Source of the DNA: a virus
DNA length: 17,470 nt
Strand: one strand, 5' to 3'
UHGV virus genome: UHGV-0068970
The position numbers were made by a program, and so were the translations under genes. Under the pieces are notes generated by a model. The model was not told the origin of the DNA. It worked only from the letters and a program-made list of their open reading frames with translations, and searched no databases. Below, one piece after another: positions 3,613-16,315 of the stretch. Every line of letters begins with the position of its first letter. Position 1 is the stretch's first letter.

Positions 3613-4512
3613 ATGACAAATACAGCAAAAATACTCAACTTCGGCAGAGGTAACTTTACCGGACAGGAGCGTAATGTGGCAGATCTCGATGATGGTTACG
3701 CCAGACTATCAAATATGCTGCTTGAGGCTTATTCAGGCGCAGATCTGACCAAGCGACAGTTTAAAGTGCTGCTTGCCATTCTGCGTAAAACCTATGGGTG
3801 GAATAAACCAATGGACAGAATCACCGATTCTCAACTTAGCGAGATTACAAAGTTACCTGTCAAACGGTGCAATGAAGCCAAGTTAGAACTCGTCAGAATG
3901 AATATTATCAAGCAGCAAGGCGGCATGTTTGGACCAAATAAAAACATCTCAGAATGGTGTATCCCTCAAAACGAGGGAAAATCCCCTAAAACGAGGGATA
4001 AAACATCCCTCAAATTGGGGGATTGCTATCCCTCAAAACAGGGGGACACAAAAGACACTATTACAAAAGAAAAAAGAAAAGATTATTCGTCCGAGAATTC
4101 TGGCGAATCCTCTGACCAGCCAGAAAACGATCTTTCTGTGGTTAAACCGGATGCTGCAATTCAGAGCGGCAGCAAGTGGGGGACAGCAGAAGACCTGACC
4201 GCCGCAGAGTGGATGTTTGACATGGTGAAGACCATCGCGCCATCAGCCAGAAAACCGAATTTTGCAGGGTGGGCTAACGATATCCGTCTGATGCGTGAAC
4301 GTGACGGCCGTAACCACCGCGACATGTGCGTGCTGTTCCGCTGGGCATGCCAGGACAACTTCTGGTCCGGTAACGTGCTAAGTCCGGCCAAACTCCGCGA
4401 CAAGTGGACCCAACTCGAAATCAACCGTAACAAGCAACAGGCTGGCGTGACAGCCGGAAAATCAAAACTCGACCTGACAAACACTGACTGGATTTACGGG
4501 GTGGATTTATGA
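3613..4512 (+). CDS. O: Replication initiator O (lambda-type), 299 aa
   Basis: From ATG 3613 (AGGAG RBS 3603-3607): MTNTAKILNFGRGNFTGQERNVADLDDGYARLSNMLLEAYSG..., recognisably lambda O. The track ORF starts upstream at 3568 (stop-to-stop extension). Confidence 0.9.
   Translation: MTNTAKILNFGRGNFTGQERNVADLDDGYARLSNMLLEAYSGADLTKRQFKVLLAILRKTYGWNKPMDRITDSQLSEITKLPVKRCNEAKLELVRMNIIKQQGGMFGPNKNISEWCIPQNEGKSPKTRDKTSLKLGDCYPSKQGDTKDTITKEKRKDYSSENSGESSDQPENDLSVVKPDAAIQSGSKWGTAEDLTAAEWMFDMVKTIAPSARKPNFAGWANDIRLMRERDGRNHRDMCVLFRWACQDNFWSGNVLSPAKLRDKWTQLEINRNKQQAGVTAGKSKLDLTNTDWIYGVDL
3961..4090. repeat. Phage origin of replication: four O-binding iterons plus adjacent A/T-rich unwinding region, inside the O gene
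   Basis: Iterons ATCCCTCAAAACGAGGGA (3961-3978), ATCCCCTAAAACGAGGGAT (3981-3999), CATCCCTCAAATTGGGGGAT (4003-4022), ATCCCTCAAAACAGGGGGAC (4028-4047), then an A-rich tract to about 4090. Confidence 0.8.
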
Positions 4513-5210
4513 AAAACATCGCCGCACAGATGATTAACTTTGACCGTGAGCAGATGCGTCGGATCGCTAACAACATGCCGGAACAGTACGACGAAAAGCC
4601 GCAGGTACAGCAGGTAGCGCAGATCATCAATGGTGTGTTCAGCCAGTTACTGGCAACTTTCCCGGCGAGCCTGGCTAACCGGGACCAGAACGAACTGAAC
4701 GAAATCCGCCGCCAGTGGGTTCTGGCTTTCCGGGAAAACGGGATCACCACAATGGAACAGGTTAACGCAGGAATGCGCGTAGCCCGTCGGCAGAATCGAC
4801 CATTCCTGCCATCACCCGGGCAGTTTGTCGCCTGGTGCCGGGAAGAAGCATCTGTTAACGCCGGGCTGCCAAACGTCAGCGAGCTGGTTGATATGGTTTA
4901 CGAGTATTGCCGGAAGCGTGGCCTGTATCCGGATGCAGAGTCTTATCCGTGGAAATCGAACGCGCATTACTGGTTGGTTACCAACTTGTACCAGAACATG
5001 CGGGCCAATGCGCTGACTGACGCGGAATTACGGCGCAAGGCTGCCGATGAACTGACCTGTATGACAGCGCGAATTAACCGTGGTGAGACGATACCTGAAC
5101 CAGTAAAACAACTTCCTGTTATGGGCGGTAGACCTCTAAATCGTGCACAGGCTCTGGCGAAGATCGCAGAAATTAAAGCTAAGTTCGGACTGAAAGGAGC
5201 AAGTGTATGA
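4509..5210 (+). CDS. P: Replication protein P (DnaB helicase loader), 233 aa
   Basis: Track ORF MKNIAAQMINFDREQMRRIANNMPEQYDEKPQVQQVAQIINGVFSQLL..., recognisably lambda P. ATGA overlap with the O stop. Confidence 0.9.
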   Translation: MKNIAAQMINFDREQMRRIANNMPEQYDEKPQVQQVAQIINGVFSQLLATFPASLANRDQNELNEIRRQWVLAFRENGITTMEQVNAGMRVARRQNRPFLPSPGQFVAWCREEASVNAGLPNVSELVDMVYEYCRKRGLYPDAESYPWKSNAHYWLVTNLYQNMRANALTDAELRRKAADELTCMTARINRGETIPEPVKQLPVMGGRPLNRAQALAKIAEIKAKFGLKGASV

Positions 5211-5509
5211 CGGGCAAAGAGGCAATTATTCATTACCTGGGGACGCATAAGAGCTTCTGTGCACAGGACGTTGCCGCGGTAACAGGCGCAACCGTAACCA
5301 GCATAAATCAGGCTGCGGCTAAAATGGCGCGGGCAGGAATCCTGGTCGTTGATGGTAAGGTCTGGCGAACGGTGTATTACCGGTTCGCTACCAGAGAAGA
5401 ACGGGAAGGAAAGGTGAGCACGAATCTGATTTTTAAGGAGTGTCGCCAGAGTGCCGCGATGAAACGGGTATTGAGGGTATATAAAAGAACATCAATGGGT
5501 ACACAATGA
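5207..5509 (+). CDS. ren: Ren (Rex exclusion resistance) protein, 100 aa
   Basis: Track ORF MTGKEAIIHYLGTHKSFCAQDVAAVTGATVTSINQAAAKMARAGILVVDGKVWRTVYYRFATREEREGK..., lambda Ren-like. ATGA overlap with the P stop. Confidence 0.85.
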   Translation: MTGKEAIIHYLGTHKSFCAQDVAAVTGATVTSINQAAAKMARAGILVVDGKVWRTVYYRFATREEREGKVSTNLIFKECRQSAAMKRVLRVYKRTSMGTQ

Positions 5510-5576
5510 TGAAACAGGTGAGTTGAGTTCAAACTGTAGTACAATTCTCTCCAGTTTGAACAGGAAAGAATATGTT

Positions 5577-5909
5577 ATGAACCCTTATATTTATCTTGGT
5601 GGTGCAATACTTGCAGAGGTCATTGGTACAACCTTAATGAAGTTTTCAGAAGGTTTTACACGGTTATGGCCATCTGTTGGTACAATTATTTGTTATTGTG
5701 CATCATTCTGGTTATTAGCTCAGACGCTGGCTTATATTCCTACAGGGATTGCTTATGCTATCTGGTCAGGAGTCGGTATTGTCCTGATTAGCTTACTATC
5801 ATGGGGGTTTTTCGGCCAACGGCTGGACCTGCCAGCCGTTATAGGCATGATGTTGATTTGTGCTGGTGTGTTGGTTATTAATTTATTGTCACGAAGCACA
5901 CCACATTAA
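5577..5909 (+). CDS. emrE: EmrE small multidrug resistance (SMR) efflux transporter, 110 aa
   Basis: From the internal ATG at 5577: MNPYIYLGGAILAEVIGTTLMKFSEGFTRLWPSVGTIICYCASFWLLAQTLAYIPTGIAYAIWSGVGIVLISLLSWGFFGQRLDLPA..., recognisably E. coli EmrE (four TM helices, conserved Glu at position 14). emrE is a known DLP12 cargo gene. Confidence 0.9.
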   Translation: MNPYIYLGGAILAEVIGTTLMKFSEGFTRLWPSVGTIICYCASFWLLAQTLAYIPTGIAYAIWSGVGIVLISLLSWGFFGQRLDLPAVIGMMLICAGVLVINLLSRSTPH

Positions 5910-6153
5910 AAATAATTTCTTTTAAAAGACTGAAATATGGCGGTTCATATCTTTACATGGGCCGCTTTTGTTAATGTTTTTAGTTTTTGTGTATTCTTTT
6001 GTGCCTTCAAGATTATTGCGTAAGCAAATTGCAATACGATTATTGTTGTATATTCAAAAGAATGTGATCGTAATTGTCTTTTTAAATAAAAATTAAACAA
6101 AAATTATATCTCACCACTAAGGTTTATAAAAGCATACGTTAGCAGGTGTCACC

Positions 6154-7680
6154 ATGAAAAAAGCCATAGCATATATGCGATTTTCATCACCAGGTCAGAT
6201 GTCTGGCGACTCATTAAACCGACAGAGAAGACTTATTGCTGAATGGTTAAAGGTAAATAGTGATTATTATCTTGATACCATAACATATGAAGATTTAGGA
6301 TTAAGTGCATTCAAAGGAAAGCATGCACAATCAGGAGCTTTTTCGGAATTTTTAGATGCTATAGAGCATGGTTATATATTGCCAGGAACTACATTGCTAG
6401 TTGAAAGTCTGGACAGACTTTCAAGAGAAAAAGTCGGTGAAGCGATTGAGCGTCTGAAATTGATTTTGAATCACGGTATTGATGTTATAACTCTTTGCGA
6501 TAATACAGTCTATAATATTGACTCTTTGAATGATCCATATTCATTAATAAAAGCCATACTTATAGCACAAAGGGCAAATGAAGAAAGCGAGATAAAGTCA
6601 AGTCGGGTTAAATTATCATGGAAGAAAAAACGGCAGGATGCACTGGAGTCAGGCACGATTATGACGGCGTCTTGTCCGAGATGGCTCTCATTGGATGACA
6701 AAAGAACAGCTTTTATTCCAGACCCCGACAGGGTGAAAACGATTGAGCTAATTTTTAAACTCAGGATGGAAAGGCGATCATTGAATGCAATAGCCAAGTA
6801 TTTAAATGATCATGCTGTAAAAAATTTCTCAGGAAAAGAAAGTGCATGGGGGCCTTCTGTAATTGAAAAATTATTAGCGAATAAAGCTCTGATAGGTATA
6901 TGCGTACCTTCATATCGTGCAAGAGGTAAAGGAATAAGTGAAATCGCTGGCTATTATCCCAGAGTCATATCAGATGATTTGTTTTACGCTGTGCAGGAAA
7001 TTCGGTTGGCACCTTTTGGTATTAGCAATAGTAGCAAAAATCCTATGTTGATAAATCTACTTCGAACAGTTATGAAGTGCGAGGCTTGTGGTAATACCAT
7101 GATTGTTCAGGCGGTATCTGGAAGTTTGCATGGCTATTATGTTTGTCCGATGAGAAGACTGCATCGATGTGGCAGGCCATCAATAAAGAGAAATTTGGTT
7201 GATTATAATATCATTAATGAGTTGCTTTTTAATTGTAGTAAAATCCAACCAGTTGAAAACAAGAAAGATGCTAATGAAACTTTAGAGTTAAAAATTATTG
7301 AGCTCCATATGAAAATTAATAATTTAATTGCTGCATTATCTGTTGCGCCTGAAGTTACCGCTATAGCAGAAAAAATCAGAGTATTAGATAAGGAATTACG
7401 AAGGGCTTCTGTATCATTAAAAACTTTGAAGAGTAAAGCGGTGAGCTCACTTGGTGATTTTCATGCTATTGACTTAACCAGTAAAAATGGGCGAGAGCTA
7501 TGTCGTACACTTGCCTATAAAACATTCGAAAAAATCATAATCAATACAGATAATAAAACCTGTGATATCTATTTTATGAATGGCATTGTTTTTAAACACT
7601 ATCCTTTAATGAAAACAATATCCGCCCAGCAGGCGATAAGTACTCTCAAATATATGGTTGATGGTGAGGTTTATTTTTGA
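6154..7680 (+). CDS. ybcK: Large serine recombinase (resolvase catalytic domain + recombinase domain + zinc ribbon), YbcK-like, 508 aa
   Basis: N-terminal AIAYMRFSSPGQ...SLNRQ resolvase-type motif, central recombinase region, Cys cluster CEACGNTM...YYVCPMRRLHRCG, coiled-coil tail. Matches my recollection of DLP12 YbcK. AT-rich relative to the flanking phage genes. Confidence 0.85.
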   Translation: MKKAIAYMRFSSPGQMSGDSLNRQRRLIAEWLKVNSDYYLDTITYEDLGLSAFKGKHAQSGAFSEFLDAIEHGYILPGTTLLVESLDRLSREKVGEAIERLKLILNHGIDVITLCDNTVYNIDSLNDPYSLIKAILIAQRANEESEIKSSRVKLSWKKKRQDALESGTIMTASCPRWLSLDDKRTAFIPDPDRVKTIELIFKLRMERRSLNAIAKYLNDHAVKNFSGKESAWGPSVIEKLLANKALIGICVPSYRARGKGISEIAGYYPRVISDDLFYAVQEIRLAPFGISNSSKNPMLINLLRTVMKCEACGNTMIVQAVSGSLHGYYVCPMRRLHRCGRPSIKRNLVDYNIINELLFNCSKIQPVENKKDANETLELKIIELHMKINNLIAALSVAPEVTAIAEKIRVLDKELRRASVSLKTLKSKAVSSLGDFHAIDLTSKNGRELCRTLAYKTFEKIIINTDNKTCDIYFMNGIVFKHYPLMKTISAQQAISTLKYMVDGEVYF

Positions 7681-7791
7681 GTAATAATCACTTTTTCAAC
7701 CGTGCTATAGTAAGAAAGTTAGGTAAGTACAATAAAATTATCTATCCTGAACGAAGCGTCCTGAGCTATGATTTTACTATAGGGACTGCCA

Positions 7792-8115
7792 ATGGATGCT
7801 GGCGTTCTCGTTCTAGCAGTTCAACAATCCCCAATCACAAAACAATTCACTGATAACGAACTTTGCACACTCGCCTGGTTATGGCGAGCAGGGAATGTGA
7901 TGTTAATTGCCTACCAGAACGTTACTCATCTTCTTCAGGATGCGGAGCATGGTGAAGCTGGTCACTTCACTTCCATCGAGCAAGAATATCCCCAGATACT
8001 CAACAGAGCGCGAGCAATCCTCGTCCGAGAAACGGCACATGTAAAACTTCAGCCGTGGCAGGATGATAAGTGGAGTCGAGTATTGCCGCATTTACCTCAG
8101 AATCTGTTTCAATAA
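7792..8115 (+). CDS. Hypothetical protein, 107 aa (orphan ORF; possibly a gene remnant)
   Basis: Only long ORF between ybcK and the HNH-domain gene. GC-richer than both neighbours. Weak RBS. No motif recognised. Followed by a 10-bp perfect hairpin (8143-8168). Confidence 0.4.
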   Translation: MDAGVLVLAVQQSPITKQFTDNELCTLAWLWRAGNVMLIAYQNVTHLLQDAEHGEAGHFTSIEQEYPQILNRARAILVRETAHVKLQPWQDDKWSRVLPHLPQNLFQ

Positions 8116-8289
8116 AGGCGCTAGTTAGTAAGGCTTCCGTCATTCTGCGATGACGGAAGTGCGGGCTGCGTACGGGAGAGCAATTGCATGAATAATATAA
8201 ATATTCCGCTCACTCCATATAGCGATTTCTGATACAAACTTATCTATTGTGGTAAAATTATAGAAACAAACTTATAGCGTACTAACCAT

Positions 8290-9072
8290 ATGGACAATAT
8301 TAATAAACACGGGCTCTCAAGAAGAATACCTGAGACAATAAAACGTCAGATAAGGCAAAGGTGCGGCTTTGGCTGTGTAATTTGTGGATTTGGATTTTAT
8401 GATTATGAGCATTTTAAACCTGACTTCGTTGATGCCAAAGTACATGATCCGAATGGAATGACACTTCTTTGCTCCCAATGCAATCAAAAAAGAGCTCGTG
8501 GTAGACTTTCAGCACAGACAGTGGAAATAGCTGACAGAAATCCCAAGTGCTTACAGGCTGGTTTTGCAAATGAAATGTTTGATTTTCATAATGAGCCTAT
8601 AACAGTAAAATTTGCAGGAGTGACGTTTCATAACTGTCAAAATTTGATTGTAGTCAATGAACAACCCATTCTTTCTGTGAAACCTTCACCCATACCACAT
8701 GGACCGATGCTTTTATCAGGAATTTTCTGTAATTCTATTGGTAAGGAGACTTTACTGATAGATGAAAATGAATGGAAAGCTAAATCAGACAATTGGGATG
8801 TGGAGTGTACCGGCCCGCGTATAACAATACGACGTGGGCCAGGAGAGTTTGCCCTCGTTCTAAAAATGGAACCTCCAACAGGATTGATTGTTGAGCGTCT
8901 TGATATGTTGTATGAAGGGGTCAGGATGAAAGGAGATAAAGATCTGCTGGAAGTTTCGATTAATGGAGGTCCCTTGCACAGATGGCAATCATGCTCAATG
9001 TCAAATTGCCATACAGGGCTTGCGATTCAGGGCGGTATTAGAGCTGCTAATGATCCTTTGTATTGCGCCTAA
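8290..9072 (+). CDS. HNH-nuclease-domain protein with uncharacterised ~190-aa C-terminal domain, 260 aa
   Basis: N-terminus RCGFGCVICG...YDYEHFKPDF...HDPNGMTLLCSQCNQKRARG fits the HNH/beta-beta-alpha-Me signature; compare the canonical HNH at 17017-17367. AT-rich ORF with a TGn extended -10 (TGGTAAAAT, about 8250-8262). C-terminal domain not recognised. Confidence 0.7.
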   Translation: MDNINKHGLSRRIPETIKRQIRQRCGFGCVICGFGFYDYEHFKPDFVDAKVHDPNGMTLLCSQCNQKRARGRLSAQTVEIADRNPKCLQAGFANEMFDFHNEPITVKFAGVTFHNCQNLIVVNEQPILSVKPSPIPHGPMLLSGIFCNSIGKETLLIDENEWKAKSDNWDVECTGPRITIRRGPGEFALVLKMEPPTGLIVERLDMLYEGVRMKGDKDLLEVSINGGPLHRWQSCSMSNCHTGLAIQGGIRAANDPLYCA

Positions 9073-9264
9073 ATCCACTAAATTGATTTTCAACAATCAA
9101 CTTGCCATAATTAAGTCACCGGAGTTTGAACTCCTCCGGTGACTTCTGCGCTAAACGGGGACGTTTATGCGCACATACAATCCAACCTCTCTTCTCCATT
9201 CACAGATGCAGAAATGCACCTGCGATATTTTGCATCCAGCGTTTGATCTCTGCGGAGGTGAAGC

Positions 9265-9720
9265 GTGAACCTCCCACAAGATGGTATCAAATTGCATCGC
9301 GGTAACTTCACCGCTATCGGTCGGCAGATCCAGCCTTATCTGGAGGACGGCAAATGCTTTCGCATGGTGCTTAAACCGTGGCGCGAGAGACGCAGTCTTT
9401 CCCAGAATGCACTCAGCCACATGTGGTACAGCGAAATCAGTGAATACCTCATCAGCAAGGGTAAAACGTTCGCCACTCCAGCTTGGGTAAAAGATGCTCT
9501 CAAACACACATATCTCGGTTATGAAACCAAAGACCTGGTTGATGTCGTAACCGGTGATATCACCACTATCCAGTCGTTACGCCATACCTCCGATCTTGAT
9601 ACCGGAGAGATGTATGTCTTCCTGTGTAAGGTTGAAGCCTGGGCGATGAATATTGGCTGCCACCTGACTATTCCGCAGAGCTGCGAGTTCCAGCAGCTCC
9701 GCGACAAACAGGAGGAGTAA
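9265..9720 (+). CDS. ybcN: YbcN / NinB-family protein, 151 aa
   Basis: GTG start at 9265 with [69 protein letters not shown]... recognised as DLP12 YbcN; the SLSQN...W motif resembles lambda NinB. Confidence 0.85.
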
Positions 9721-11287: not shown

Positions 11288-11812
11288 TTATTGTTTAACC
11301 CATAATAATTCATTGACATTGAATCCCAACTTTTGAGCGGTTCGCACATAGTCTGCTTTTACTTTATCTGGAATAGTTGGGGTCCTTGCCAGAATCCATA
11401 GGTATTCTCTGTTCGGACCACTGACAAGAGCATACTTATACTCATCATCCAGTTTGATTACATTATAGCCACCATAGAAGGGGCCAAAAAACGAAACCTT
11501 CAATGCTGCAGTTTTAGTATCTCCAGTAAAGTATGCTTTACCTTCGCTCTCGCTCCATTTATTTTTCGTTGGATCGTATCCACGGTTAAGTACACGAATC
11601 CCTCCGTCGTTCCGTTTTCCATAAGTAGCGCTGACCTGTTCCAGACCACGTTCGAACCGGTTCTCGAGGCGAGCTATTTCATACCATTTTCCGAGGTAGC
11701 GGTTGGCGTCAAAATTTGTAATCGGCTGCACACCTTTAGGTGGTGTCGGGGCCTTACATGCTATAAGAGTGAAAGAGAGTGCAATGCCAGTCAACACAGG
11801 CCATAACTTCAT
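11288..11812 (-). CDS. blc: Blc-like outer-membrane lipocalin lipoprotein, 174 aa
   Basis: Signal peptide with lipobox (LIAC). NFDANRYLGKWYEIARLENRFERGLEQVSATY...KVSFFGPFYGGYNVIKLD...YLWILARTP closely parallels E. coli Blc. Encoded antisense to the late transcript. Confidence 0.8.
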   Translation of the reverse strand: MKLWPVLTGIALSFTLIACKAPTPPKGVQPITNFDANRYLGKWYEIARLENRFERGLEQVSATYGKRNDGGIRVLNRGYDPTKNKWSESEGKAYFTGDTKTAALKVSFFGPFYGGYNVIKLDDEYKYALVSGPNREYLWILARTPTIPDKVKADYVRTAQKLGFNVNELLWVKQ

Positions 11813-12004
11813 AATAAATCCTGTACTTTTGATAGTTGAGAGTAAGTATGAAAGATAGATGATTACGACCGATCACTTAAAGAACTTTCATACTATATTA
11901 GGAATAGTCCATAACAGAAAAATTGTCAGTGATGACGCCAGAAAGGCAATTTATTCCGTGCACTACACAGTTTATGTGTTAATGAATTAGTCAAGGGGGA
12001 GAAT

Positions 12005-12964
12005 ATGATAAAAAAACCTGTGATTGGAATCAGCGGTTGTTTGGCCGGTTCTGCTGTTCGTTTTGATGGTGGTCACAAAAGAGCTGACTTTTTAATGGAC
12101 AAATTAGTGGAATGGGTAACATTCAGACCAGTATGTCCGGAAATGGCTATAGGGCTGCCAGTTCCGCGTCCTGCTCTACGTCTTGTGCGCTCGATGCAAG
12201 GAAATATACGGATGTGTTTCAGCCACGACCAGAATGAGGATGTGACAGAGAGAATGACAGAGTTTAGTCGTTCTTATATGGACAAATTAAAGGATGTATC
12301 GGGGTTTGTGGTTTGTGCTAAATCTCCCAGCTGTGGCATGGAGCGCGTGCGTGTCTATGATGAAAATGGTAATCGAGGTCGTAAAGATGGAGTGGGACTA
12401 TTTACGAGCACTTTGATGGAAAAGTTTTCCTGGCTACCGGTTGAAGAGGATGGGCGATTACATGATCCAGTGCTTCGTGAGAATTTTGTTGAAAGAGTTT
12501 TTGCTTTGCATGAGCTCAATCACCTTTACAAGGAGAAATTATCAAGAAGAGAGTTATTAGCTTTTCATAGTCGTTATAAGCTTCAGTTGTTGGCGCATAG
12601 TCAGGCAGGCTATAAAGATATGGGACCATTTGTGGCTGCAATACACGAGTGGGCGGACCTTGAATCATACTTTGAGGTGTATCGTGATAAGCTGATGGCG
12701 ATTCTCAGAAAACCTGCATCACGTAAAAATCACACGAATGTGCTGATGCATATACAGGGGTATTTTAGTAACTACTTAAGTACACGCCAGCGTAAAGAGT
12801 TGAGCGAGGTTATACTTAACTATCGTTCTGGCACATTACCTCTTCTTGCGCCGTTGACTCTGCTGAAGCATTATCTGGGTGAGTATCCTAATGATTACTT
12901 GCTTACACAGAATTACTTCGATCCCTATCCGGACGAACTGGCTCTAAGACTGATGGTAAATTAA
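12005..12964 (+). CDS. DUF523 (TudS-like putative [4Fe-4S] thiouracil desulfidase) / DUF1722 (YbgA-like) fusion protein, 319 aa
   Basis: N-terminal half carries the DUF523 pattern GISGCLAGSAVRFDG ... PVCPEMAIGLPVPRP ... CAKSPSCGM with three conserved Cys. C-terminal about 170 aa is consistent with a YbgA-like DUF1722 domain. AGGGGGA RBS. Domain assignment from memory, not a search. Confidence 0.7.
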   Translation: MIKKPVIGISGCLAGSAVRFDGGHKRADFLMDKLVEWVTFRPVCPEMAIGLPVPRPALRLVRSMQGNIRMCFSHDQNEDVTERMTEFSRSYMDKLKDVSGFVVCAKSPSCGMERVRVYDENGNRGRKDGVGLFTSTLMEKFSWLPVEEDGRLHDPVLRENFVERVFALHELNHLYKEKLSRRELLAFHSRYKLQLLAHSQAGYKDMGPFVAAIHEWADLESYFEVYRDKLMAILRKPASRKNHTNVLMHIQGYFSNYLSTRQRKELSEVILNYRSGTLPLLAPLTLLKHYLGEYPNDYLLTQNYFDPYPDELALRLMVN

Positions 12965-13315
12965 TTGTATGCGATATCATCCAAAAGGATGAGTTCCTGC
13001 ATGCAGGATATTTACAATCGTAAAAACTACACTATGATACCCAGAGTGTCAGTTTGTATAAAAACTCTGTTTACGCTGAAGAAACAATTGAGATGCAACT
13101 TAAAGTTGGTAAACATGCCAGTCAAAATATATAATATTATGATTCCACGCAGCTATATATAATATAACAGATTGGTTTAATAATTTGTCTTTGTGAGTTA
13201 AATACATAATTTTATACTTGTGATGCAATGAAATTTTCCTTATTGTTGAACTGGCGAATATTGATTTTCCACCTATACTTACCTGGTGTAACCCCAATGA
13301 TATCAGGTGGATAAT

Positions 13316-14047
13316 ATGCCATACATATGTTCTATCATTTTGGTGTTGAACTCGTTTGATGTCCGAATTGGTAAAGAAGATATTTTGTTTAAAAAAGGAA
13401 GTGCTGTTCTCATTGATTACAATTTAAAAGATTTTTTTTCATCAAATATAGATCATGTAATGATCGTAGATGTTGAAGAGAAAACAGTTAATGATTTCTT
13501 TAAAAGCAACACACTCTCACCTTTTTCTGTAAGAAGGTTTTATCCGGCATACTTGATGGTGGAATGTGAAGATTTTTCATTGTTAAAGAACTTGATTGCA
13601 TGCTTGAATTGTGATGGCAGAACTGTGGATTTTGTTAGAAATCAAATATCACTTGCATGTCTTGCTATCTTATCTTCAGAGAAAATAGTGCAAAGTTTTT
13701 TATTTGGATGTCTTAATAGTTTAGGAAGTAAAGTTAAGGCTATTATTCACACGGATATATCTGCAGCATGGAGACTTTGTGATATATCTTCAAGACTGTA
13801 TCTGAGTGAAAGTCTGTTAAAAAGAAAATTAAAGCACGAAGGCTTATCATTTAGTAAGTTAATTCTTGAAGAGCGAATGGTGATGGCGGAAAGGTTATTA
13901 AGCTACAATTTATATTCTGTTGGAAAAGTTGCTGAGATATGCGGTTATGAAAACACGTCATATTTTGTAAGTGTTTTCAGAAGGTATTTTGGTGTTCCTC
14001 CCCATCAATATTCATCAAGATTTTTTTTAGAAAAAGACATGATGTAA
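13316..14047 (+). CDS. AraC/XylS-family transcriptional regulator, about 243 aa
   Basis: C-terminal AraC-type HTH signature (...ERMVMAERLLSYNLYSVGKVAEICGYENTSYFVSVFRRYFGVPPHQY). Very AT-rich gene and upstream region. ATG 13316 has an AGGTGG RBS; the track's 13307 start is an upstream GTG. Confidence 0.8.
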   Translation: MPYICSIILVLNSFDVRIGKEDILFKKGSAVLIDYNLKDFFSSNIDHVMIVDVEEKTVNDFFKSNTLSPFSVRRFYPAYLMVECEDFSLLKNLIACLNCDGRTVDFVRNQISLACLAILSSEKIVQSFLFGCLNSLGSKVKAIIHTDISAAWRLCDISSRLYLSESLLKRKLKHEGLSFSKLILEERMVMAERLLSYNLYSVGKVAEICGYENTSYFVSVFRRYFGVPPHQYSSRFFLEKDMM

Positions 14048-14234
14048 CGTGATGCGTTTTAATGATTTTGTAATTTTCGTATTTGATAATTGTATGATGC
14101 TTTCAGCTACGCCAGAATAATCGCGGCGTTTTTCTTTTTGAATAGATGTTCAAGCCTTACGCTAATGTAACTTCTATACCTTTCCTCTTCGTTCCGAACC
14201 GTGTACACCATCCGTTATTTGCGGAGGTGAGGCT

Positions 14235-15437: not shown

Positions 15438-15586
15438 TGTCCGCAGTAAACGCGCATTCTCGTGCGCATATCAACCAAGAGCTTTTCGGGATATGAGACA
15501 GAGACAGGACGGTGGCTTACATCGTGCCGCTCTTGGGCTGTCCATGTCTGCGAGAACTGGCTCATATCACCAAAAAGGTAAATACG

Positions 15587-16315
15587 ATGTCCAATATCAT
15601 CCCGATTGATTTCGAAGGCCATCCCATGCGTTTTTCTGACGATGGCTGGTTTGACGCGACTGCGGCAGCTGACAAGTTCAACAAGGAGCCGGCTCAGTGG
15701 CTTAGGCTTCCTGAGACTGTCCGTTACATCGAGGCGTTAAAGAGTAGATATGGGAATATCACATATGTAAAAACCAGCCGCGCTCGCAAAGATCGTGGTG
15801 GCGGAACATGGCTTCACCCAAAACTGGCGGTCAGATTTGCTCGATGGCTTTCTGTAGATTTTGAGATCTGGTGTGATGAGCAAATTGACGCAATCATTCA
15901 GGGTTCCGTTCATCATATCGACGATGAAAGAATAAAGGCTATTTTCCTTCTGGATAAATCTCAGCCATGGGAAAAGAGGTTTAGCGATCCGTTTTATTCT
16001 GCGATGTTCAAAATGTCAGGGCTGCCCCGTCATCGACCAGGTCGTCGCCCCGCACTATTTGGGATGATCAGTGCCAAGTGGGTATATGGCCCGGTATTAC
16101 CACCAGAAGTATATGCAGAGGTTAAAAGACGGCTGGCTACGGGAGACAAAATCCATCAGCACCTTAAACCTGACGCGCTGACATTGGTTGAGCGACAGAT
16201 CATTGCCGTTACCAGCATTGCCAATGGGTGCTCTGATTATCGTGATTTCGAAGCGCGTTGCATGTCGGCATTCCAGGTGAAAGGGCAGATGAAATTGCTC
16301 TATGCGGCGGCCTGA
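15587..16315 (+). CDS. KilA-N/Bro-N-like DNA-binding domain protein (antirepressor-like), about 242 aa
   Basis: From ATG 15587: MSNIIPIDFEGHPMRFSDDGWFDATAAADKFNKEPAQWLRLPETVRYIEAL... resembles KilA-N/Bro-N phage domains. C-terminal half unassigned. Start uncertain; the track ORF begins at 15512. Confidence 0.6.
   Translation: MSNIIPIDFEGHPMRFSDDGWFDATAAADKFNKEPAQWLRLPETVRYIEALKSRYGNITYVKTSRARKDRGGGTWLHPKLAVRFARWLSVDFEIWCDEQIDAIIQGSVHHIDDERIKAIFLLDKSQPWEKRFSDPFYSAMFKMSGLPRHRPGRRPALFGMISAKWVYGPVLPPEVYAEVKRRLATGDKIHQHLKPDALTLVERQIIAVTSIANGCSDYRDFEARCMSAFQVKGQMKLLYAAA

Follow-up and report, generated by a model that had tools for sequence, protein, structure and literature searches.

The window examined here, a stretch of 17,470 nt from the virus genome UHGV-0068970, holds the early and lysis half of a lambdoid prophage of the DLP12/82 type, and our analysis concerns the cargo segment that it carries between the genes ren and ybcN. 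To the left of this segment the gene order is cIII leader, sieB, N, cI, cro, cII, O, P and ren; to the right it is orf33, ybcN, ninE, ybcO, rusA, ylcG, Q, a second cargo cluster and the lysis genes. A first-pass annotation made from the letters alone had placed emrE, ybcK, a further open reading frame (ORF) and an HNH gene between ren (ending at 5509) and ybcN (starting at 9265), and the gene calls bear this out. It had also called the island richer in A+T than its flanks, and indeed the G+C content of 5510-9264 is 38.6%, compared with 50.2% for O-P-ren and 50.9% for orf33-rusA. The modules of the segment are unequal in this respect, with the ybcK unit lowest at 35% and a remnant of a rha gene the exception at 48%. 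Cargo at 35-40% against flanks at 50% is compositionally distinct, as in an accessory locus. The features of the segment and of its two flanks are as follows.

5207-5509, plus strand: ren, the left conserved flank (PHROG Ren).
5528-5562, plus strand: 10-bp inverted repeat GTTCAAACTG / CAGTTTGAAC, just 5' of emrE.
5577-5909, plus strand: emrE, a small multidrug resistance (SMR) multidrug / quaternary-cation efflux transporter (NCBIfam EmrE; Pfam Multi_Drug_Res).
5939-5966, plus strand: intrinsic-terminator-like hairpin and T-run after emrE (a consensus match only).
5967-6153, plus strand: AT-rich leader of ybcK, the ylcJ region of K-12 (from the annotation of relatives).
6154-7680, plus strand: ybcK, a large serine recombinase of 508 amino acids (Pfam Resolvase, Recombinase and Zn_ribbon_recom).
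7705-7782, no strand: 9-bp inverted repeat CTATAGTAA / TTACTATAG, arms 7705-7713 and 7774-7782, with a 60-bp spacer.
7792-8115, plus strand: ORF of 107 amino acids, the 3' remnant of a rha/antirepressor-like gene (Pfam P22AR_C, 1e-13).
8134-8159, plus strand: hairpin with a 10-bp stem, after the rha remnant.
8229-8258, plus strand: promoter-like site with a TG-extended -10, upstream of the HNH gene (a consensus match only).
8290-9072, plus strand: gene for a 260-amino-acid HNH protein, with an N-terminal Cys4 HNH nuclease domain and an all-beta C-terminal domain.
9083-9100, no strand: palindrome TTGATT-N6-AATCAA, the sharp right boundary.
9113-9146, plus strand: conserved hairpin with a 10-bp G+C-rich stem and a conserved TGAAC core in its loop.
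9167-9268, plus strand: orf33, a small conserved ORF overlapping the start of ybcN (annotated in relatives and in phage 82).
9265-9720, plus strand: ybcN (NinB/Orf-like), the right conserved flank (PHROG NinB/Orf, 3e-52; NCBIfam PRK09741).

Alignment with lambda, with DLP12 and with other relatives, which the first-pass annotation had proposed as a check, did fix boundaries for the variable segment, at ~5474-9082, but revealed no target-site duplication; by homology, 9083-9264 (palindrome, hairpin and orf33) belongs to the conserved right flank. On the left, the breakpoint falls inside the last 9-12 codons of ren (5473-5482), at 5473 in phages with other cargo and at 5482 in lambda, while in phages without ren it lies at the end of P, and the C-terminus of Ren differs for each cargo type. 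On the right, homology resumes at 9083 in every relative, whatever its cargo. The left boundary is the looser of the two (end of P, 5452, or 5473-5482), and the position itself is fixed, with P/ren to the left and palindrome-orf33-ybcN to the right in every relative examined.

The site is empty in lambda, where ren and ninB nearly adjoin, as had been claimed: 73 bp separate the two. Lambda resembles the window in having O-P-ren followed by a NinB/Orf-type gene in the same order, and differs from it in that the 73-bp gap holds a hairpin followed by a T-run and that its ninB is of another sequence type than ybcN. The DLP12 prophage of K-12, in which emrE and ybcK have been annotated for decades, has the order ren-emrE-ylcJ-ybcK-ybcL-ybcM-ybcN and shares with the window its flanks and the emrE-ybcK block (95% identical over positions 5296-7719, and matching again from 9083), but it carries ybcL/ybcM in place of the rha stump and the HNH gene, and an insertion sequence (IS), IS3, inside ren. 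The closest complete genomes are those of E. coli LD91-1 (99.7% identity), which differs by an IS3 at the ren/emrE junction, and of strain 1517k (100% over window positions 7700-9100). IS3-family insertions at or near this junction are independent in LD91-1 (L001, 3489-4666; labels of this form are our own) and in K-12/C600 (L002, 1866-3028), where the element splits ren, and one further cargo layout (L147) holds another IS.

A survey of the interval between P and the right boundary showed how variable its content is. We retrieved 120 IMG/VR contigs by means of a conserved 34-mer of the right flank and counted layouts in the 65 viral contigs that also contain the end of P, together with the window. 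This yielded 31 cargo layouts, seven of which carry emrE-ybcK and 20 of which have rha/P22AR sequence; in 24 of the 31, the same outer junctions bound cargo without ybcK, so that the boundaries are not specific to the recombinase. Among representative cargo, PADLOC matched PD-Lambda-1 (2e-198), AbiLi/AbiLii, SIR2 (the Aga_SIR2-PNTD1-PNTD2 and pAgo models), AriA, HEC-01A, mad3 and several PDC candidates, and Pfam matched NACHT, SIR2_2, AAA_21 with RloB, HEPN, DUF4145, T5orf172/MUG113, Arc, Ead/Ea22, esterase and VasI. Annotated relatives add PD-lambda-1 in PhiR26_1, HEPN in strain SJ3 and, in other records, TagO and an acyltransferase. A hotspot should display diverse cargo in closely related phages, with known defence systems included, as this slot does, and the cargo brings signals of its own in the terminator after emrE and the promoter-like site before the HNH gene, both of them consensus matches. 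The exact layout of the window occurs in roughly 80-109 of 5,426 complete E. coli genomes. In the literature that could be searched, we found no description of a hotspot slot between ren and ninB.

Pairwise BLAST of the window against nine annotated relatives resolved the segment into four modules, namely emrE, the ybcK unit, the 3' stump of rha and the HNH gene, with internal breakpoints at ~5916, 7719-7790, 7965 and 8095-8166. The first is the end of emrE, as seen against the emrE copy of an island adjacent to fliE; the breakpoints at 7719-7790 come from the K-12 and O157 types, that at 7965 from the esterase type, and that at 8095-8166 from phage Turner and from full-length Rha genes. The four modules are distributed independently and not as one inherited unit. 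Out of the 5,426 E. coli genomes, 3,698 have emrE; in 1,399 it occurs together with ybcK, and ~2,300 further genomes have a 91%-identical emrE in the fliE-adjacent emrE-ybcL-ybcM island, without ybcK. Homologues of the HNH protein, 50-79% identical, are spread across gamma- and beta-proteobacteria, some of them in the same slot behind the replication genes (in a Klebsiella phage, and in Enterobacter prophages, where the gene follows O-P directly), and in those other genera the gene occurs without ybcK.

The third module had been taken for an orphan ORF, which it is not: it carries P22AR_C, and window positions 7793-8166 are 83-85% identical in DNA to the 3' end of full-length rha-like genes (L006, L007). 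Full-length relatives combine Bro-N with P22AR_C, and the window ORF has P22AR_C only and is therefore not a full antirepressor. The phages that carry these full-length genes have no emrE or ybcK.

These observations bear directly on the idea, put forward in the first-pass annotation, that the large serine recombinase delivered the island. In its strict form, the whole 3.7-kb segment would be one integrative element, inserted and excisable by YbcK, and one could cite for it the empty site in lambda and the presence of an intact large serine recombinase, under purifying selection, inside an AT-rich segment. Delivery by the recombinase is nevertheless unsupported, because the outer junctions also bound unrelated cargo without ybcK; the segment is a four-part mosaic, and both emrE (in the ~2,300 genomes) and the HNH gene (in other genera) exist without ybcK. 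Neither the ends of the island nor the surroundings of ybcK showed target-site duplication, terminal inverted repeats or att-like (attachment-site-like) repeats above chance, the best repeat pairs being 14-28 nt long, 75-93% identical and none of them at the junctions. We consider a single YbcK-borne element very unlikely, and regard YbcK as a passenger in the island, or at most a sub-element of it, and not as its delivery vehicle.

At the same time, YbcK is no decayed gene. Its three domains match Pfam (PF00239, 5e-19; PF07508, 2e-14; PF13408, 2e-6), residues R9, S11, D87, R88 and R91 are catalytic, and 15 family members share Y7-x-R9-x-S11...Q15 and D87-R88-L-S-R91 without change. Orthologues 41-61% identical, with invariant catalytic residues, are found in Atlantibacter, Yersinia, Pantoea, Erwinia, Ewingella and Citrobacter. 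Six E. coli alleles all retain the full 508 codons, with ratios of nonsynonymous to synonymous substitution (dN/dS) of 0.06-0.16. With purifying selection and invariant catalytic residues, YbcK is clearly a maintained, and probably an active, enzyme rather than a relic. The serine phage integrases (SPbeta SprA, phiC31, Bxb1) have the same three-domain build, and residues 142-432 of YbcK give a distant profile match to structures of the SPbeta SprA integrase. YbcK is not, however, the integrase of its phage, because phages with ybcK encode their own: prophage 1517k and the inducible phage 4A7 both encode a tyrosine integrase, and 4A7 an excisionase as well. Nor does ybcK sit where the integrase gene of an element would be expected, being internal, between ren and ybcN. 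PADLOC had no match for YbcK, EmrE or the rha stump, and our literature search on ybcK and its RefSeq protein ids turned up no study of what YbcK does. Transcription of ybcK is held low in K-12 by a Rho-dependent terminator in its leader (PMC4150792).

Within 450 bp of 23 YbcK-family genes we saw no inverted or direct repeats above chance (z<2), except in L004, and no cognate att sites beside these genes or at the island ends, although weakly symmetric sites could escape a repeat test. Two local candidates were examined and discarded. A 20-nt near-repeat flanking ybcK (6060 / 7893) falls within what remains of the rha coding sequence and lacks conservation in L004, and an integron-like attI 3' of ybcK would require the breakpoints 7719, 7746, 7965 and 8095 to coincide, which they do not.

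Tn4451 with TnpX and SCCmec (staphylococcal cassette chromosome mec) with Ccr are cargo elements mobilised by large serine recombinases, and the window can be set beside them in that a resistance-type gene, emrE, adjoins the gene for YbcK. Unlike Tn4451 and SCCmec, the island shows no element ends or att sites in the repeat searches, its boundaries are not those of a recombinase, and ybcK is internal to a phage that has a tyrosine integrase.

A more modest proposal is that only the ybcK unit (~5917-7790) is a self-inserting, recombinase-only element 3' of emrE and that the rest is ordinary cargo. The unit has the lowest G+C content of the segment, and K-12 differs here from the fliE island: between emrE and ybcL-ybcM, K-12 has a ybcK-containing segment of 2,088 bp, with AATAAT at both junctions, where the island has 11 bp. 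This is compatible, weakly, with an insertion of the ybcK unit, 6 bp of AATAAT being weak evidence in AT-rich DNA. The genes of YbcK orthologues, moreover, stand singly among unrelated neighbours, in places of four kinds: as the last gene of prophages, after tail-fibre assembly genes and often beside umuDC, lom, an autotransporter or SRAP; in the post-replication slot (nin region) of Atlantibacter RC6 and of Pantoea, once inverted; on plasmids; and on a relaxase-bearing element. On the other hand, the family genes lack flanking repeats (the emrE remnant of L004 excepted), and the right end of the unit is inconsistent, at 7719-7790 in one comparison and 268 bp further in K-12. The two genes emrE and ybcK are never apart in the prophages of E. 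coli (the 1,399 genomes), and ybcK shows no presence/absence polymorphism there. We think such an element unlikely; as a maintained enzyme, YbcK may have some local role in recombination.

Several observations on the family stand beside this. Terminal-gene orthologues 43-60% identical to YbcK (L010, L012, L017, L018, L019, L025, L026 and L032) occur in prophages of three tail types, and those at prophage termini abut host genes, among them ssrA, lepA and nrfA; these recombinases may be the integrases of the prophages concerned. For the Atlantibacter orthologue, no repeat of the ssrA 3' end was found between the tail genes and the recombinase within 10 kb. An Enterobacter plasmid orthologue, 42% identical, adjoins an alpha/beta hydrolase gene, but a conserved pairing of ybcK with such a gene was rejected, as the E. 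coli phage and Enterobacter plasmid hydrolases are 30% identical over 86 amino acids. In L004 (E. coli N3, whose layout phages 4A7 and Perceval share), ybcK and part of the rha stump lie between the two copies of a ~45-bp direct repeat (2402-2439 and 4475-4512), the second copy being a degenerate 3' end of emrE and the sequence downstream of it. This suggests either that the order emrE-terminator-esterase is older than the insertion of ybcK or that an unequal crossover took place.

The 9-bp inverted repeat that the first-pass annotation had pointed out is present as described, just 3' of ybcK, but proved to be of a kind expected by chance (~2.3 such pairs in an island of this size and composition), and the K-12, O157 and N3-type alleles carry uncompensated changes in its left arm. 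This leaves little for the suggestion that YbcK acts on the island as an invertase or resolvase, at this or another local repeat, and switches the expression of downstream cargo. The repeat does exist, and in the K-12 and O157 types variable cargo does begin ~40-110 bp past the ybcK stop codon; yet only one orientation, and no inverted arrangement, occurs among the E. coli matches listed, the repeat is not conserved, and the scattered breakpoints that spoke against an attI site speak against a switch as well. Gin/Hin-type invertases are small serine recombinases of ~190 amino acids, and YbcK, at 508 amino acids, has the three-domain build of an integrase instead. Inversion or resolution by YbcK is, to our minds, barely credible. 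All in all, what survives of the interpretation in the first-pass annotation is that cargo has been inserted relative to lambda, and not that YbcK delivered, inverted or resolved it.

The right junction calls for a separate account. When distinct sequences upstream of the ybcN-proximal boundary are compared, 19 of 24 join at TTGATT, and the palindrome is perfect in 16. Its arms are conserved; the 6 nt between them vary with the type of cargo, together with which they move. The palindrome is present once per phage, and at least three cargo types break within or past it. The phage 82 record proposes a promoter here, whose putative -35 the palindrome overlaps, and a CATAAT -10 follows. The hairpin beyond it is annotated in phage 82 as a possible (putative) regulator-binding site, and across phages its stem shows G.U-tolerant changes and one compensatory stem replacement. 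Cassettes in L006, L007 and the fliE island (L009) are separated by decayed copies of the boundary that include part of orf33.

One could read this as site-specific cargo turnover, in which cassettes are inserted at TTGATT-N6-AATCAA by a dedicated recombinase, not necessarily YbcK, in the manner of an integron. The recurrence of one and the same joining nucleotide, the conserved arms with a spacer that co-varies with the cargo, the single site per phage and the decayed boundary copies between cassettes would all fit. At the same time, the coincidence with the putative -35 means that selection on a promoter/operator explains why the palindrome is retained, the left junctions are not sharp and have no matching site, at least three cargo types do not respect the palindrome, and no candidate recombinase is common to all cargo types. 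We rate this as quite improbable and take selection keeping the promoter/operator as the simplest account of the sharp right junction. A bolder variant, in which the junction is a site-specific cassette-exchange site and solitary YbcK-family recombinases could serve such slots as enzymes or as mobile seeds, has in our estimate a slim chance of being right; if true, lambdoid phages would own an integron-like system capturing defence and moron cassettes.

We propose instead that the window holds one composite occupant of the slot, whose four modules would have separate histories. Phages and prophages resident in one host would swap whole cargo sets through homologous recombination in their conserved flanks, and occasional illegitimate joins would create the internal junctions and the remnants. 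Such joins are in line with the rha stump, the emrE 3' remnant after ybcK in N3-type phages and the partial orf33 copies. In experiments by De Paepe et al. (PMC3945230), lambda and phi80 acquired DLP12, Rac and Qin sequences, the DLP12 nin region included, through relaxed homologous recombination between flanking homologies, and we infer homologous flank exchange for the slot of the window as well. A block ren'-emrE-ybcK would have displaced the left part of an older 'rha + X' cargo, leaving the rha 3' stump, and afterwards only the X position would have changed, to be occupied by ybcL/ybcM, an esterase, small ORFs or the HNH gene. All ybcK layouts share one ren 3' variant, and all but the K-12 type share some rha stump, which points to a single origin of the emrE-ybcK block. 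The HNH gene would be a stand-alone unit that has a promoter-like site of its own and occupies the variable position next to the boundary, on its upstream side.

Several points count against this account. YbcK is under strong purifying selection and its relatives are solitary in many cargo regions, which fits an active role in mobility; no recombination event was observed directly; the right junction, with 19 of 24 ends abutting TTGATT, is sharper than sloppy recombination plus selection predicts, and hints at a site-specific or strongly constrained process; and a defence role for the HNH protein is argued from position and fold, with a PADLOC match to PtuB of just E 0.03. Weighing both sides, we consider it likely that the P/ren-ybcN interval is an accessory and anti-phage-defence hotspot of DLP12/82-type lambdoid phages, filled in the window by a composite occupant and renewed by flank exchange.

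The HNH protein has the catalytic His/Asn and the zinc-binding Cys residues on an HNH fold. Its matches by sequence are weak, with PHROG HNH at 5e-4 besides the marginal PtuB match; it has no match in Pfam or NCBIfam, and a sequence search of the PDB found nothing. The all-beta C-terminal domain gave no informative fold match, with no SAVED, SRA or other reader domain. Compared with HNH effectors such as Cap5 of CBASS (cyclic oligonucleotide-based anti-phage signalling systems), the type IV restriction enzymes McrA/TagI and PtuB of Septu, the protein of the window thus differs in having no recognisable reader, and its gene has no partner gene. We infer that it is a prophage-encoded candidate defence nuclease. 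In prophages of the Enterobacter cloacae complex (L101-L103, 7806-9185), the HNH homologue is followed by two small ORFs and a RES-domain protein of 459 amino acids, a candidate toxin or defence cargo of the same slot.

EmrE matches NCBIfam NF042984 at 240 bits (cut-off 226) over residues 1-110 of 110; the gene starts at 5577, and 5523 is merely the longest-ORF start. The inverted repeat upstream of it is nearly kept in the 91%-identical fliE-island copy, with one change in the right arm. The 9-mer AGTTTGAAC occurs both in that right arm (5553-5561) and in the loop region of the boundary hairpin (9123-9131), which, with a chance expectation of roughly 0.08, may be coincidence. The fliE island (for example L009, 4001-6144, in E. 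coli ECO20) ends in a decayed copy of the phage right boundary, has IS elements and an SRAP pseudogene as neighbours, and resembles the remains of an old prophage.

Elsewhere in the window, the second cargo cluster occupies 11288-14047, between Q and the lysis genes, and holds a lipocalin gene (11288-11812, minus strand), a gene for a YbgA-like 2-thiouracil desulfurase/DUF1722 protein (12005-12964) and a gene for an AraC-family regulator (13307-14047), with a G+C content of 31-34% over 12800-14200. A protein with KilA-N and P63C domains is encoded at 15512-16315, just 3' of the lysis cassette. The Rfam scan matched the Lambda cIII thermoregulator (Lambda_thermo) at full length at 345-403 on the minus strand (88.5 bits, gathering score 50) and had no match inside the island.

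Like the hotspots described in PMC9122126 and by Vassallo et al. 2022 (PMC9519451), the P/ren-ybcN interval is a fixed slot with many alternative cargos that include known defence systems, but it belongs to a different phage family, lies in the early-right operon after the replication genes, and also holds non-defence morons (emrE, ybcLM, an esterase, lipoproteins) and a recombinase. The island of the window is in itself ordinary, mosaic cargo slots of temperate phages being a known kind. In K-12, EmrE exports cationic drugs in the lysogen, and this medically relevant efflux gene is carried by inducible phages in a block with ybcK. The slot already holds several validated defence systems, which makes the 260-amino-acid HNH protein a good candidate anti-phage gene, and the interval as a whole a rich and easily located hotspot whose uncharacterised occupants are likewise good candidates.

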